Positions 9,614-18,001 of a stretch of 20,715 bases of DNA are shown piece after piece. Position 1 is the stretch's first letter. The number at the start of each line of letters is the position of its first letter. The notes below the pieces were generated by a model, which was not told the DNA's origin, did no database searches, and saw only the letters and a list, made by a program, of their open reading frames with translations. The stretch is from positions 1-20,715 of the forward strand of contig JBHLOI010000059.1 of assembly GCA_048940645.1 (NCBI GenBank). The letters run 5' to 3'. The stretch comes from Promethearchaeota archaeon. GTDB taxonomy: Archaea; Asgardarchaeota; Lokiarchaeia; Sigyniarchaeales; SOKP01. Made by a program: the position numbers and the translations under genes.

Positions 9614-10138
9614 ATGTATGATGCAATTTTTAAAGTAGTTATTTTTGGTGACGCAGGTAGTGGCAAAACTACTCTATTAAAGAGATACATGACTGGCTTA
9701 TTTATCCCAGACACTCAAATGACTATCGGGGTTGATTTTGAAACTAAAAATCTTGCGATTGATAGTGTGCAAGTTAAATTAATGGTATGGGATTTTGCTG
9801 GAGAAGAACGATTTCGGTTTATCTTTCCTAAATATATTCGTGGAGCTATGGGAGGGATTCTCTTGTATGACATCACCAGTTACGCCTCACTTTCTCATGC
9901 TTATGATTGGTTATCACTTATGAATGGAGCCCAAGAACAATTTCCAATTATTCTAAGCGGTGCTAAAGCAGATCTAGAGCTCTCTCGAGAAGTGACTCAT
10001 GAAGAGGGTTTAAAATTCGCTAAATCTTTGCATTTAGATGATTTTATCGAATGTTCCAGCAAAACTGGTGAAAATATAGGAAGATTATTTGAAACCTTAA
10101 CAAAAAAGATGTTAAATATAGCATTTACCGAACAATAA
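9614..10138 (+). CDS. Rab-like small GTPase (Ras superfamily)
   Basis: G1 GDAGSGKT, G2 TIGVDF, G3 WDFAGE, G4 GAKAD, G5 ECSSK. RabF-like segments KLMVW, RFRFI, YIRGA and LLYDIT. No C-terminal Cys. Confidence 0.93.
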   Translation: MYDAIFKVVIFGDAGSGKTTLLKRYMTGLFIPDTQMTIGVDFETKNLAIDSVQVKLMVWDFAGEERFRFIFPKYIRGAMGGILLYDITSYASLSHAYDWLSLMNGAQEQFPIILSGAKADLELSREVTHEEGLKFAKSLHLDDFIECSSKTGENIGRLFETLTKKMLNIAFTEQ

Positions 10139-10211: not shown

Positions 10212-11189
10212 TTATTCCTTTTCCGATTTTTCTGTTTCTTCTTTAGTAATTTTAGTTTTAATCTCTTTGATTTCTTCTTTAATCTTTTTAATAGTGATTC
10301 CTTTAAGTTTAGCAAATCTATAAATGAATATGACACTAGAAATTAGAATTCCAGCAAGATAGAATACTTGAATAGTCCAGAATAACGGCTTAATTGATGT
10401 ATAGAATATTAAGTCGAAGGCATAGGATATTGAGGCAATTGTAGCAATCCAAATCATAGATATTATTAAAGCTATTCTTTCATAAAGTTTTGGTTCTCCT
10501 TTGTCAAGGACAAATATTTTTAACCAGAAAATAATACAAATAAATGCTGCTGGGGTAAAAATTAGTGAACCTATGGCAAGTGGTATAAGTAAATATACTG
10601 CAAATCGACTTCTCCAAATTTCTAGAACTTCCCCTAAGGTCATTTGATCTTGAATTTGAACCTTAGCATATTTTCCCCTCCATGTAAAATACTTCTTCTT
10701 AATCCCACGTCCAATTTTTTTGGCACCGCTTTTAATCCGCTTTATTATTCCTTTGTCGATAGCTTCTTGAAATTCTTCTCTAATTAAAGGAATTATATAT
10801 AATGAGGCCATTATAGAAATTATCCCATAAAGGAACAAAATTAGGTCAAACCAATATCGCAGCCCAGTCAAAGGAGTTGTAGGTGGTAGATTTGAGACAA
10901 TACTATAAATTGCATAACCTGTCAATATTGCTGGAACTATGATTTGTATAATTACGAGGGCTTGAACATGTTTTTTTTCAAATTTTTCGGTAAACCGATT
11001 TAGAATCCATAAAATCCCATTTGCAACAGATAATATCAAACCAAAACCAGAAAGAAGTTTCATAGTCCAAAAGAAAATTAAGAATGTAAAATCTAATGGT
11101 ACAAACTCAAAAATTAATTCCAGTATCATAAAAACTGTAGTTGCAACTAAGCCAATTATATAAAATATGTCAAATTTTTTAAGATTCAT
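10212..11189 (-). CDS. Polytopic membrane protein of unknown function
   Basis: About 7-8 hydrophobic segments, a highly basic central loop and a charged C-terminal tail. Confidence 0.8.
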   Translation of the reverse strand: MNLKKFDIFYIIGLVATTVFMILELIFEFVPLDFTFLIFFWTMKLLSGFGLILSVANGILWILNRFTEKFEKKHVQALVIIQIIVPAILTGYAIYSIVSNLPPTTPLTGLRYWFDLILFLYGIISIMASLYIIPLIREEFQEAIDKGIIKRIKSGAKKIGRGIKKKYFTWRGKYAKVQIQDQMTLGEVLEIWRSRFAVYLLIPLAIGSLIFTPAAFICIIFWLKIFVLDKGEPKLYERIALIISMIWIATIASISYAFDLIFYTSIKPLFWTIQVFYLAGILISSVIFIYRFAKLKGITIKKIKEEIKEIKTKITKEETEKSEKE

Positions 11190-13626: not shown

Positions 13627-14988
13627 TTATACATACTTTTGAAGCCCTGCAATTCTTTTTTCCATTTTTTTGATTTTATTTTCGTTTCCGTAAAATTCTA
13701 TAATACTTAATGCTTGTTTGAAATTGCTAATAGCATTTATATAGTCTCTCTTTTTCTCTGCTTTCTCTCCCGCATCAAGGGCATAATTAAGTTCGATATT
13801 TTTTATTTTTTTATCAAGTTCTAAAACCATAAATGAGATTCTACCGATATCAAGTTTAAAATCAAACCCTGTTGCTAAATAAAGAGCCTTTTCATAATCC
13901 TTCTGTGCTTCTTTATATGCTAAAGCTCTTTCTGCAGTCTCAGCTTTCTTAATAAAATTCTCCATTAACTTTCTAGCTTCCTCTTCGCTCATAGTATTAG
14001 CTTTTTCTTTTAGTTCATTTATTGCATTATCATTTGCAATTATTGGAGAAATTAGTTCATTATTTGCGATTCTAGTAGCGCGTAAATCGTGAAACTTTTT
14101 AATTTTATTTGCGGCAGTTTCAATATTTGTCGGAATAATTACTTTGCTCATTAAAAGCTGATAAATTTCATAAAGAATAATACTTGCGTCGATGTTAACA
14201 ATTTTTTGAACTTTATTTAGGAGATTATTGATAAAAAAGACCTGTCTAGAAGCTAAAATTTCTTTTGAAAAGTCCACTATAGCCTTTTGAATATAATTTT
14301 TATTGATAGATTCCAAATTATTGGGCAAAATTGTATGAGTAAGAACCATCGGGAACAATAATTTTATATTAAAAGTGTCTATGATAAAATCAATTGTATC
14401 ATCAAATTCAAGAACCCCCATTTTTATGATTTTTTCAAGTTTATCTCGATATCTTGTTTCATAATCTGTTAAAAAGTCGTTTACAAGATTTTTTAGACTA
14501 TTAGAAGCTTCTTGATCTAAAACTAAGCATATTCGAATGAATTTACCGTTTTTTAACAAAATATTAAATCTTTCATATTGGAGTTCATAGAATTTATGAT
14601 TCGGTATATGTCCAGTAGTATCATTTGAAATTTTACCCGATTCTGAAAAAGTGATGTTTGCTTGAATGAAACCCGTTAAAAACCCAATATCTACTCCTGC
14701 TCTTGAAAGTGGATAATCCACTATAGGTAATCCAGTATGTTTTATCATCAATAAAATATGTTTAATGTTTAAGACGTCTAAAAATTTTTGCCAGATTAAA
14801 TTTTGAAACATTTGAATTCGTTTTTCTTCAGAATCAATTAAATTAATTTTTATGTTTTGACTAACATCAAACCCAAATTTAACAAATTGAGCTTTAACGC
14901 ATTCTTTGCAACCATCTGGGTAATTATTACACTTACTTTTATCTATTCCGCAGTTAAATCCTACTCGACTAACTTGAAAATATACCAT
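13627..14988 (-). CDS. Multidomain protein: Cys4 N-terminus, longin/roadblock-like domain, helical (wHTH-like) middle, C-terminal TPR-like repeats
   Basis: HILLMIKHTGLPI...FLTGFIQANITFS...FYELQYERFNILLKNGKFIRICLVLD...LVNDFLTDYETRY follows a longin-like strand/helix pattern. AQKDYEKAL and AISNFKQAL are TPR-like helices. Confidence 0.7.
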   Translation of the reverse strand: MVYFQVSRVGFNCGIDKSKCNNYPDGCKECVKAQFVKFGFDVSQNIKINLIDSEEKRIQMFQNLIWQKFLDVLNIKHILLMIKHTGLPIVDYPLSRAGVDIGFLTGFIQANITFSESGKISNDTTGHIPNHKFYELQYERFNILLKNGKFIRICLVLDQEASNSLKNLVNDFLTDYETRYRDKLEKIIKMGVLEFDDTIDFIIDTFNIKLLFPMVLTHTILPNNLESINKNYIQKAIVDFSKEILASRQVFFINNLLNKVQKIVNIDASIILYEIYQLLMSKVIIPTNIETAANKIKKFHDLRATRIANNELISPIIANDNAINELKEKANTMSEEEARKLMENFIKKAETAERALAYKEAQKDYEKALYLATGFDFKLDIGRISFMVLELDKKIKNIELNYALDAGEKAEKKRDYINAISNFKQALSIIEFYGNENKIKKMEKRIAGLQKYV

Positions 14989-15267: not shown

Positions 15268-15663
15268 ATGTCAGAGGAAGAACTTAGGGATCAAATTAAT
15301 AAAATAGCAAGTAAAATTATGGAAGTAGAAGAGGGGGCAAAAAAGAAAGAGGCTTACATTAAAAATAAAATTAATGAAGGATTTGATCCTAAAATTAGTG
15401 AGAATGAATCAAAACTGCAAATTGGACAAAATAAATTAGATGAATTGAATGAAAATATTAAAAGATTGAATTTGGAAAAGGAAAAATTAGTTTCTTTCAT
15501 GAATGATTTAAAAAAACAATGCAACTCATTAAAGAAGGAGAAAGCAGGAATTTTAAAAAAAGAAATCAAGGCAATTGCTAAAGAGAAGAATAATAAGATG
15601 AAGCAAATCAACAGAGAGATTAAATCATTAGAAAAGCAATTGAAATTGAAAGAAAGTAAATAA
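15268..15663 (+). CDS. Coiled-coil hypothetical protein
   Basis: K/E/N-rich heptad pattern along the whole length, with a single Pro. Confidence 0.8.
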   Translation: MSEEELRDQINKIASKIMEVEEGAKKKEAYIKNKINEGFDPKISENESKLQIGQNKLDELNENIKRLNLEKEKLVSFMNDLKKQCNSLKKEKAGILKKEIKAIAKEKNNKMKQINREIKSLEKQLKLKESK

Positions 15664-15746: not shown

Positions 15747-16601
15747 TCAAATTACTTGTTTTTCAGAAAAAACTTTTTCTAGAAATTTGTGGAATTCTTT
15801 AGTATTTCTTTCTAGGATATTATTATCTTTAATCTGATTATTGTGTATATATTTCTTGATTAGTTTATTCTTTAGACTTATTAAACCAGCAATTGTTTTA
15901 ATTTCCTTTTTAACTTGTATTTTAAAGGGAGGTTTCATTCTCCCACCTATTTTTGGTATGAAAACTAAATGATTTCTAAAAAGAGTAGTTAATATTTTAT
16001 GGAAATTATTTTGAGGAAATTTTTCATTATACCAACCTTTTAATTCTTTAATTGGTACAGGTTTATTGCCTAAAAGTTCTAAAGTTTGTATAACATCATT
16101 TCTCTCTAACAATGAGATAATATTTTCTTCTTCAAGGGTGCCCTCAATTTCATCAAGAATTGCCGAATTAAACTCTCTTATCCAACTTTTAACTAATATT
16201 ATATTGTTTTTAATTTCATGTTCAGAATCTTGATTGTAATAGTTTGTTCTTTCATAAAATGCTGTATATATTTCATTTTTGGTTTTTAACCATTCTGAAA
16301 ATTCAATACAAAGATTGAACACTGCCTTTTCAGTTTTAAGAGAGGGTGGCTGATTAAAAATTACCGAAACCATAAGGAATTCTTTATTACCGCGAGCCCA
16401 TTTTGAATCAATTTCGAAATAATAATTCAATGTGTAAGATGAGTTAAAAGAATGAGTAAAAAAACCTTCTGATATGATCTGATCCATTAAATTAGCTATA
16501 ATTATAGCATTTCCTTCCTTCAATTTATTTTCCGGATAAGAATAGAAAACTGAAGGGCCCATCTTGCGATCAAAATAGGAGAGAGCTGACTGGATTTGCA
16601 T
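15747..16601 (-). CDS. uDENN/longin domain protein (folliculin/SMCR8/NPRL2-like N-terminus) with wHTH-like C-terminus
   Basis: N-terminal LSYFDRKMGPSVFYSYP fits the F-x4-G-P hairpin motif. YFEIDSKWARGNKEFLMVSVI contains the ARG motif. Confidence 0.72.
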   Translation of the reverse strand: MQIQSALSYFDRKMGPSVFYSYPENKLKEGNAIIIANLMDQIISEGFFTHSFNSSYTLNYYFEIDSKWARGNKEFLMVSVIFNQPPSLKTEKAVFNLCIEFSEWLKTKNEIYTAFYERTNYYNQDSEHEIKNNIILVKSWIREFNSAILDEIEGTLEEENIISLLERNDVIQTLELLGNKPVPIKELKGWYNEKFPQNNFHKILTTLFRNHLVFIPKIGGRMKPPFKIQVKKEIKTIAGLISLKNKLIKKYIHNNQIKDNNILERNTKEFHKFLEKVFSEKQVI

Positions 16602-16705
16602 TATTTAGTCCCAAAAATTGTTCATTCTTTTTATTTAGAACATCTGGTACTCATATAAAAATTAAAATAATATTTAGATAAATATCTTAATTTTGAATTT
16701 TAAGT

Positions 16706-18001
16706 TTACTTCTTAATATTTCTAGAAAGGTAAATTAAAAATATTAATACAATAAGCCCCAATAATGAAAGAAATAGAAACATGAAGTAAATATTAATTT
16801 CAGCTACGTATCCTGCAATAATAGGTGTTAATCCAAAACCAATCCCTACTAAAATTTCATTTATAGTTGAGTATTTTGCTGTATTTTTTGCTGTTCCATG
16901 TTCAAGCATAATTTTCATCGAAGTTCCATGAATGAGTCCAAAGAAAAGACCAGTTGACATGCTTAATATTGAAATAAACCAAATATCGTCAAAAAAGATT
17001 ACCAAGCTTGAAAATAACATAACTAGAATTATACTTATTAGTACAGAAGTCTTTCTGTTATATACTTTCATAGAATTGATCCAAGTTAAGCCTATTAGTT
17101 GAGTTGCTTGAATTCCGAATTGTACAAGATAAGTTGGAGTTGAGGTAATTGCTGAAGCTTTTAAAAAAATTTGATATGAAAAGAGAAAATTTGCTTTAGC
17201 GATTGCCAAAAAAATTATTCCAATCCATGAGAATAGAATTGGATAAATAATCATTGGATGATTTTTTTTTATTTCTATATGAGAAATCGTAGAATCTACT
17301 TGAATATGTGGCTCTTGATTCGATAAAGATACACTTGATTCTTTTTTTAAGAATAAACTAACCGGAATTAGTAAAAATGAAATTCCCCAAGAAGCGATCA
17401 TAGCAAAATAATCATTCCAAACAAATGCCCAGACATACCCTACAAGAAGCCCGAGAAGAAATCCAGAGTTCCATGAAAAGTTAAAATGTTTAAAATTTTT
17501 ATTAGATTTCTCTATATTACTTACTTTTTGCCATTTACTTAATAAATTAAAGCAGTTTGGCCAAAAAACTCCTAATGATATTCCTAATAAAATACGACAC
17601 ATGATTAAAAACCAAGGCTCAAAGTATAATATTTGAGCTCCAGTTAATATTGGAGTAATCACACAAGATAGGATGAGAGAATTCCTAATTCCCAACTTTG
17701 AGGTAATTATTTGCCCCAAAATGGGAGCAAAAATATATGCTATAGCTCCAGCAGAAGATATAATCCCTAAAGTACTCTCACTAATAAGGATGACTCTATA
17801 TAGATAATTTTGAAGAGCCCGATCAAAAATCGAAACATAAAATAAGCGAATAAATGAAAGCATAAATAATGACCAAACCCGATAATTTTCAGTTGAATAA
17901 CTACTGACTGAATTTTTGTTATCATACTTAAAAAATTTCTTCGAGATTGGCACAATTTTATACCTTATTATTATTAAAAGAAGAAATAATACGTTTCTCA
18001 T
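16706..18001 (-). CDS. MFS transporter
   Basis: About 12 TM segments, a motif A-like GQIITSKLGIRNSL, RILLGISLG and GFGLTPIIAGYV. The true start may be the GTG at 17953, which has AAGGT upstream. Confidence 0.88.
   Translation of the reverse strand: MRNVLFLLLIIIRYKIVPISKKFFKYDNKNSVSSYSTENYRVWSLFMLSFIRLFYVSIFDRALQNYLYRVILISESTLGIISSAGAIAYIFAPILGQIITSKLGIRNSLILSCVITPILTGAQILYFEPWFLIMCRILLGISLGVFWPNCFNLLSKWQKVSNIEKSNKNFKHFNFSWNSGFLLGLLVGYVWAFVWNDYFAMIASWGISFLLIPVSLFLKKESSVSLSNQEPHIQVDSTISHIEIKKNHPMIIYPILFSWIGIIFLAIAKANFLFSYQIFLKASAITSTPTYLVQFGIQATQLIGLTWINSMKVYNRKTSVLISIILVMLFSSLVIFFDDIWFISILSMSTGLFFGLIHGTSMKIMLEHGTAKNTAKYSTINEILVGIGFGLTPIIAGYVAEINIYFMFLFLSLLGLIVLIFLIYLSRNIKK

Follow-up and report, generated by a model that had tools for sequence, protein, structure and literature searches.

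The stretch of DNA analysed here, hereafter the window, covers positions 1-20,715 (20,715 nucleotides) of contig JBHLOI010000059.1 in assembly GCA_048940645.1 of a Promethearchaeota archaeon (Asgardarchaeota; Lokiarchaeia; Sigyniarchaeales; SOKP01). Its gene at 15747-16601 on the minus strand encodes a protein of 284 amino acids (aa) in which a predicted longin domain precedes a predicted winged helix-turn-helix (wHTH) domain, and which may regulate a small GTPase in the manner of a GTPase-activating protein (GAP). The gene is the sole long frame at this position, running from an ATG at 16601 to a stop codon at 15747-15749. Comparison with four orthologues gave a ratio of nonsynonymous to synonymous divergence (dN/dS) of 0.15-0.16, with a coding-region dS of 0.34-0.50; the gene is real and under purifying selection. 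The complete protein matched none of the Pfam and NCBIfam families at E ≤ 10, and a phmmer search against all PDB sequences gave no match. The features of the gene are listed below with their evidence or properties.

15747-16601, minus strand: whole gene of the longin and winged-helix protein, 284 aa (open reading frame, homologues, dN/dS)
16137-16601, minus strand: longin domain, residues 1-155, with β1 3-11, β2 15-22, α1 29-40, β3 46-52, β4 55-65, β5 73-82, α2 88-107 and α3 124-154
16554-16574, minus strand: F10-x4-G15-P16 in the β1-β2 hairpin, the 'GP motif' (conservation; column-exact alignment to NPRL2 F15...G20-P21)
16389-16406, minus strand: S66-K-W-A-R70-G71 in the β4-β5 loop, the candidate arginine-finger loop (conservation; R70 at 16392-16394)
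15828-16124, minus strand: winged helix-turn-helix, residues 160-258, followed by a long helix (19 lysines and arginines versus 6 aspartates and glutamates; isoelectric point, pI, 10.3)
15750-15827, minus strand: helical tail at the C-terminus (residues 259-284), which is conserved in orthologues of 284 aa and helical in both models (predicted local distance difference test score, pLDDT, lower here at 51-80)

The longin domain and its two motifs

An AlphaFold2 model was built from a 52-sequence alignment and showed a mean pLDDT of 82.8. The model revealed the element order β-β-α-β-β-β-α-α, which is longin topology, and the five-stranded sheet between helices that is typical of the longin superfamily, with G15-P16 placed in the β1-β2 hairpin (before β2) and R70 in the β4-β5 loop (residues 66-72). 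Each of the ten Foldseek matches at E ≤ 1e-3 was a chain of a GATOR1/SEA or folliculin complex. Alignment of structures from the Foldseek list with VIA-align gave the following Z-scores (further values in brackets).

8dhb_J, active FLCN GAP complex: 14.5 (2.5; 136)
6nzd_H, folliculin complex: 13.6
9o5a_H, GATOR1: 12.8
8yqg_B, Lokiarchaeal Roadblock-Longin: 12.7
8adl_S, SEA complex: 11.7
4zy8_D, Lst4: 11.5
7o2w_A, C9orf72-SMCR8: 11.2
3kyq, Ykt6: 10.2
4afi_B, VAMP7: 10.1
Various adaptin, TRAPP and Sec22 longins: about 9

A structure search independent of Foldseek, which covered 48,161 representatives, reproduced this ranking with the GAP complexes on top. The longins of GAP complexes lay 2-4 Z units above generic longins, catalytic and non-catalytic subunits both included; 6ces_N is NPRL2 by the depositor's name, and the other matched chains were identified by complex only. 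As judged from the model, the N-terminal domain has a longin fold, and among solved structures the longin-GAP complexes (FLCN, GATOR1/SEA and C9orf72-SMCR8) come closest to it. The first-pass annotation of this DNA, which was made from the sequence alone, had already called a longin, and both the topology and the top structural matches agree with that call. It had also used the term 'uDENN', of which the longin fold stands while a DENN core is absent, so that the term means only 'longin' here: Pfam gave no match to a core or downstream DENN domain, residues 160-258 form the predicted winged helix, and the matches to FLCN and DENND chains start at residue 1 of the model and stop at about 159, or at 204 at the latest.

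Residues 10-16 of the protein are F-D-R-K-M-G-P, which fits F-x4-G-P, and residues 60-80 are YFEIDSKWARGNKEFLMVSVI, written elsewhere as Y60-FEIDSKWARGNKEFLMVSVI, a segment that contains YFEIDSKWARG. The codon of R70 is CGC at 16394-16392. The F-x4-G-P element, the arginine motif and the R70 codon at 16392-16394 were therefore all found in the 284-aa frame as the first-pass annotation had given them. We compared these elements with solved proteins by searching 177,635 PDB sequences with a profile of the N-terminal domain (residues 1 to about 110), which was built from 20 sequences, namely the window protein and 19 of the 20 short single-domain representatives (without P0181). The best match was NPRL2, with an E-value of 0.11 (15.8 bits) that is not significant alone. 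In the profile alignment, F10-x4-G15-P16 paired exactly with NPRL2 F15-x4-G20-P21, and the proposed likeness of the hairpin to that of known longin GAPs was thus recovered column by column. The β4-β5 loop was equal in length to that of NPRL2 (7 residues), and at the same E-value of 0.11 R70 paired with S77 and G71 with R78. The family arginine, as far as this alignment can place it, lies in the same loop as NPRL2 R78, one position earlier; the suggestion that the two sites are equivalent holds for the loop and its length, and an exact match of the two residues would be tentative.

In NPRL2, Arg78 is reported to be an arginine finger on a loop of the longin domain (PMC8534245), and the corresponding arginines of SMCR8 (Arg147; PMC8213707) and FLCN (Arg164; PMC7063858) have also been described. 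PDB searches by sequence, run with the protein and with four profiles, never returned FLCN, SMCR8 or 8YQG; NPRL2, at E 0.11-0.44, was the one relevant match. When a profile of the arginine loop alone (35 columns) was used, only an unrelated prolyl isomerase was retrieved from the PDB. Since FLCN and SMCR8 are missing from all sequence searches, the likeness to their D-x-x-A-R-G loop that the first-pass annotation proposed is a putative one. Among the proteins of near and longer lengths found with the N-domain profile, no record was named folliculin, SMCR8 or NPRL2. In a neighbouring Atlas cluster, 19% of the members carry NPR2, at a score of 0.83, which is taken as a lead only.

Distribution of the family and fusions to GTPases

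A word-indexed search of 5.8 billion proteins identified 135 homologues at E ≤ 1e-3, all of which came from Asgard metagenome-assembled genomes (MAGs) or metagenomes; the named records were labelled Promethearchaeota, Loki-, Thor-, Hod-, Odin- or Hermodarchaeota. The homologues fell into two length classes, one of about 284 aa like the window protein and one of about 370-450 aa. Nearly all named records of relatives read 'hypothetical protein', and two, from the Joint Genome Institute (JGI), read 'ArsR family regulator'. In an alignment of 52 relatives with 38-90% identity to the query, P23, M39, D40, E45, N59, Y61, E63, S66, W68 and R70 were invariant, and the conservation of F10, G15 and P16 was at least 90%. 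When 1.84 billion cluster representatives were searched exhaustively with phmmer, 292 matches reached E ≤ 1e-3, of which 86 also reached E ≤ 1e-10 and 20 reached E ≤ 1e-30; the part common to the matches corresponds to query residues of about 6-150. A domain hidden Markov model was built from this shared part, and residues were counted in 117 representative domains that span both motifs, out of 145 significant ones, with one domain per 50%-identity cluster. F10 was present in 117/117, G15 in 116/117 and P16 in 110/117; in the second segment, the counts were 102/117 for N59, 113/117 for S66, 94/117 for A69, 109/117 for R70 and 107/117 for G71. Conservation of the arginine among homologues, which the first-pass annotation had named as a check on its reading, was thus borne out in both sets, and the counts for F10, G15, P16 and R70 indicate that the two motifs mark the whole domain family and not one odd protein.

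The domain profile matched 84 of 201 sampled genomes of the phylum. In the taxonomic family of the window, it matched 40 of 40 genomes, usually with several copies each, and in some other families of the phylum it matched no genome (for example, 0 of 43 and 0 of 19). The window genome holds six members of the protein family. Besides the window gene and a long form of 386 aa, these comprise two more stand-alone forms and one protein each of longin-Arf-PAS and longin-GTPase architecture; R70 is kept in all six. The nearest relatives (loci L007-L011, 84-89% protein identity) are labelled inconsistently as Odinarchaeota, Hodarchaeota and Promethearchaeota, and these MAG names are an unreliable guide to lineage. 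One long-form locus (L070) lies in a MAG labelled Candidatus Nanopelagicaceae bacterium, an actinobacterium, although its content is typical of Asgard archaea, and the contig is probably mis-binned.

Pfam was used to scan for fusions in 94 of the 146 newly listed representatives (P0121-P0266), the 52 shortest being excluded. The N-domain itself matched no Pfam family, and the following domains were found after the longin domain.

Arf/Ras-type GTPase (3 also with PAS): 22/94
PAS and/or histidine kinase, without GTPase: 8/94
V4R: 4/94
Zinc ribbon: 4/94
wHTH-PRTase-associated: 3/94
TPR: 3/94
TATA-binding protein (TBP): 2/94
TIR: 1/94
Weak response-regulator match: 1/94
Weak NikR_C match: 1/94
Nothing recognisable: 45/94

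The arginine was kept in 20/20 of the GTPase fusions that could be scored, and two of the six family members in the window genome are themselves GTPase fusions. A longin with the GP motif and the arginine was fused to a TBP domain in two proteins and to TIR in three (P0160, P0183, P0146, P0301 and P0302). The window genome also contains 27 matches to Gtr1/RagA at E ≤ 1e-5. Four of these 27 matches (contigs C52, C24, C9 and C15) carry in-frame stops (TGA, TAA or TAG), and they are possibly pseudogenes or assembly errors.

The winged helix and the surroundings of the gene

A separate model of residues 156-284, which was based on 8 sequences, gave the same winged-helix picture with a pLDDT of 80.4. 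The predicted domain has the three-helix bundle and β-wing with a basic surface that characterise the structures of ArsR, HxlR, MarR and PadR regulators, and its wing, LVFIPKIGGRMKPPFKIQVKK, is rich in lysine and arginine, while the longin half is acidic (pI 5.1). Among the listed structural matches of the C-terminal model, the best were nearly all winged-helix regulators of prokaryotes or viruses; the 50 best included no GATOR1 chain, although a weak or missing match is no proof of different folds. No ArsR, HxlR, MarR, PadR or other helix-turn-helix (HTH) sequence model of Pfam or NCBIfam matched at E ≤ 10. According to the models, residues 160-258 form a basic winged helix of the prokaryotic ArsR/HxlR/MarR/PadR kind. 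The wHTH-like C-terminus that had been suggested by reference to NPRL2 and NPRL3 is thus confirmed as to fold in the model, but the domain resembles prokaryotic regulators, with GATOR1 missing from the 50 best matches. NPRL2 and NPRL3 combine a longin domain with C-terminal winged helices (PMC5681675), and by analogy the window protein parallels them at the level of layout.

Upstream of the gene, a major facilitator superfamily (MFS) transporter gene (16706-18001) is followed by a spacer of 104 base pairs and then by the longin gene. The spacer contains the following features.

16602-16705, minus strand: upstream intergenic region, 87% mean column identity over six orthologous loci
16653-16661: T/A-rich, TATA-like TTTTTATAT, in the upstream spacer
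16676-16687: imperfect palindrome AGATATTTATCT, in the upstream spacer

The identity of the spacer exceeds what is expected from the synonymous divergence of the coding region. Because the spacer is conserved and holds a TATA-like element and a palindrome, the gene probably has its own promoter at 16602-16705, and the palindrome at 16676-16687 is a possible operator; both assignments are read from sequence.

The synteny of the 284-aa form is limited to close relatives, and its neighbours differ elsewhere. In the close relatives, genes for a 453-aa protein and a 131-aa protein accompany the longin gene in 6/17 and 8/17 short-form loci, respectively (one of the 17, L022, is a long-form locus). 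In the window, the 453-aa protein (13627-14988, minus strand) has a cysteine-rich N-terminus and no significant Pfam family (DUF406 is sub-threshold, E 0.0042), and the 131-aa protein (15268-15663, plus strand) is lysine-rich and coiled-coil-like with no Pfam family. No relation of neighbours to the longin family was detected by hhalign, which gave probabilities of 0.15 for the 453-aa protein and 0.08 for a 325-aa protein at 10212-11189. A 174-aa Ras/Rab-type GTPase is encoded at 9614-10138 on the plus strand (Pfam Ras, E 1.2e-43); its distance to the longin gene is 5.6 kb, a span that contains four or five genes. We do not call this GTPase a partner because of the distance and the GTPase-rich genome.

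The neighbourhood of the long form (about 386 aa) is stable, with a HAD hydrolase in 62/64 loci, a C-N hydrolase in 60/64, DUF2095 in 57/64 and ribosomal protein L15e in 44/64. In 28/64 of these loci (L023-L086; for example, L025:3211-4167), a gene for a Gtr1/RagA-like GTPase (Pfam E 2e-23) is found on the opposite strand at a distance of about 2 kb; in the window genome, no Gtr1/RagA match was found on the contig of the long form (C117). Many long-form loci have an open reading frame of about 82 aa directly downstream (for example, L025:7218 onward and L030:7148 onward) that clusters with the long form, and in others, such as L022 (440 aa), one longer frame spans both. The small frame is either a C-terminal tail that is split or fused, or the product of a frameshift.

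Possible function of the protein

We propose that the product of the window gene is an Asgard-archaeal signalling protein with two domains, in which a longin domain of the FLCN/NPRL2/SMCR8 type is joined to a basic wHTH. The two elements that mark the family, the F-x4-G-P hairpin and the S-x-W-A-R-G loop, lie side by side on the sheet edge of the longin domain. This domain, probably as a dimer, would dock an Arf/Rag-like small GTPase, and R70 from the β4-β5 loop would be set beside the nucleotide and stimulate GTP hydrolysis, as do NPRL2 R78, FLCN R164 and SMCR8 R147. The winged helix would provide output or anchoring, either through DNA binding or through dimerisation. We give a probability of about 0.5 to the reading that the protein regulates a small GTPase through the GP/arginine pocket in a GAP-like way, and by analogy GAP activity of the protein is plausible.

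Several observations weigh against this reading. In sequence, the protein is not significantly similar to any longin GAP of eukaryotes: its Pfam and NCBIfam searches were empty at E ≤ 10, its match to NPRL2 stood at E 0.11, and of 21 family members one touched Pfam Folliculin (PF11704; E 0.051) and none touched NPR2 (PF06218). The profile alignment sets R70 on NPRL2 S77 and not on R78. Eukaryotic heterodimers keep the finger arginine in only one subunit. The arginine of the present family is kept in every architecture (PAS/kinase, V4R, TBP and TIR fusions) and in all six paralogues of the window genome, so the residue could serve binding or structure. Furthermore, the short form has no conserved GTPase neighbour, as Ras-family genes occur within 6 kb in 4/17 loci, which by a rough estimate that was not computed is about the level of chance in GTPase-rich genomes. 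The C-terminal domain looks like a DNA-binding regulator, unlike anything shown for a GAP, and no measured GAP activity for an Asgard longin was found in a literature search.

Some of these points would be met if the longin domain were a GTPase-binding platform without catalysis, that is, an effector, scaffold or exchange factor that reads the state of a GTPase without changing it, like the majority of longin and roadblock proteins, with the GP/arginine pocket holding the GTPase or shaping the loop. Most longin proteins are reported to be platforms or guanine nucleotide exchange factors (GEFs) (PMC10933270; PMC8534245), R70 is one position off R78, and the arginine persists even where the GTPase is fused in cis, as well as in all paralogues, where a purely catalytic residue need not be kept. 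We regard such a platform as possible, though clearly less probable than the GAP-like reading, as the GP motif and the arginine together are reported in PMC12290439 to be specific to GAP longins and absent from GEF-type longins, and also from FNIP2, NPRL3, adaptins, TRAPP and DENND proteins. It is very improbable, in our judgement, that the likeness of the catalytic site is convergent or coincidental and that the conserved residues only stabilise an Asgard-specific fold unrelated to GTPases. The similarity of sequence to eukaryotic proteins is indeed not significant, but two separate motifs occupy the two matching structural sites, the GAP complexes were the top structural matches in an unbiased search, and 22 relatives are fused to GTPases.

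The C-terminal half raises another alternative, in which the protein is a one-component transcription regulator whose wHTH binds DNA, perhaps at its own promoter, and whose longin domain senses a small molecule or a protein other than a GTPase, like PAS, GAF or V4R domains. The pI of 10.3 of the winged-helix domain with its lysine- and arginine-rich wing, the JGI name 'ArsR family regulator' of two relatives, and the conserved upstream region with its palindrome all fit such a regulator, as do the longin fusions to PAS/histidine kinase, V4R and TBP and the fusions to two-component domains noted by Liu et al. However, no Pfam HTH model matches, the corresponding wing in the long-form paralogue is short and not basic, and the winged helices of NPRL2/3 and of many eukaryote-like proteins bind proteins; the fusions, moreover, indicate GTPases as the partner of the longin domain. 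We consider this alternative unlikely as a whole, and as regards the C-terminal half it is compatible with the GAP-like reading. A more novel reading is a GTPase-coupled transcription factor, in which the longin domain would dock a Rag/Arf-like GTPase and switch it off via R70, and the DNA-binding wHTH would read this state out as transcription; we consider this reading unlikely.

Among known proteins, NPRL2 (yeast Npr2), the subunit of GATOR1/SEACIT that acts as a GAP for RagA/Gtr1, is the best PDB profile match, with an exact F-x4-G-P and an arginine in the same loop, and like the window protein it has a longin domain followed by one or more winged-helix domains (PMC5681675). In contrast, NPRL2 has 380 aa, a TINI domain and the partners NPRL3 and DEPDC5, whereas the 284-aa window protein is without TINI and has no such partner known; it differs further in its arginine offset by one, a sequence match of E 0.11 and a winged helix of the prokaryotic-regulator type. 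FLCN (Arg164) and SMCR8 (Arg147) share with the window protein the GP motif and the loop arginine (PMC12290439; PMC8213707), but they carry a DENN domain after the longin domain and work as heterodimers with FNIP or C9orf72, and the window protein is without DENN. The longin dimer of the Lokiarchaeal Roadblock-Longin protein (8YQG) is fused to roadblock and not to a winged helix, and the family profiles gave no sequence match to it; the literature search yielded no paper on 9M28 and 8YQG, the structures of Lokiarchaeal Rag and Roadblock-Longin. The ArsR/SmtB, HxlR/YodB, MarR and PadR regulators share the basic charge and the long helix after the wing with the window protein, but an N-terminal longin sensor like that of the window protein is not known from these families, and no Pfam HTH model matched.

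The presence of such longins in Asgard archaea has been reported previously. According to a study in Traffic (2025; PMC12290439), a Heimdallarchaeial reference and 14 further Asgard longins have a GP motif and an arginine finger that are arranged in the same way, and Asgard longins with both motifs may act as GAPs for ArfR or Rag GTPases. Domains called 'NPRL2-like longin' were found by Liu et al. (bioRxiv 10.1101/2020.10.19.343400) to be abundant in Asgard archaea, with fusions to two-component domains and to GTPases, and longin-GTPase fusions were also reported by Tran et al. (PMC10933270). The published longins of PMC12290439 and Liu et al. share with the window protein the phylum, the fold class and the two motifs, and the fusions of the window family to GTPases and two-component domains are of the same kinds as theirs. 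It is almost certain that the window protein belongs to these published groups, the 'FLCN/SMCR8-type' longins and the 'NPRL2-like longin' asCOGs. What the first-pass annotation had put forward as new, an intact catalytic finger that implies GAP chemistry before eukaryotes, was therefore already in print in the Traffic study.

Eukaryotic longin GAPs act upstream of TORC1 and at lysosomes, where they control Rag and Arf GTPases. If Asgard longins accelerate GTP hydrolysis, arginine-finger longin GAPs predate eukaryotes; this idea has been published as a hypothesis, to which the window gene adds a candidate and not the concept. The present family contributes a compact, soluble-looking protein of 284 aa that is unannotated in databases and easy to express, together with family-wide counts that single out the GP/arginine pocket as the best-conserved feature of a domain with repeated fusions to GTPases. 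A homodimer with two fingers, if true, would represent the state that preceded duplication into catalytic and non-catalytic subunits. The pairing with a basic, prokaryote-type winged helix is the distinguishing feature of the protein and hints at a direct link between GTPase signalling and gene regulation; a GTPase-coupled transcription factor, if that is what the protein is, would condense into one protein a logic that in eukaryotes is divided among FLCN, the Rag GTPases and TFEB.
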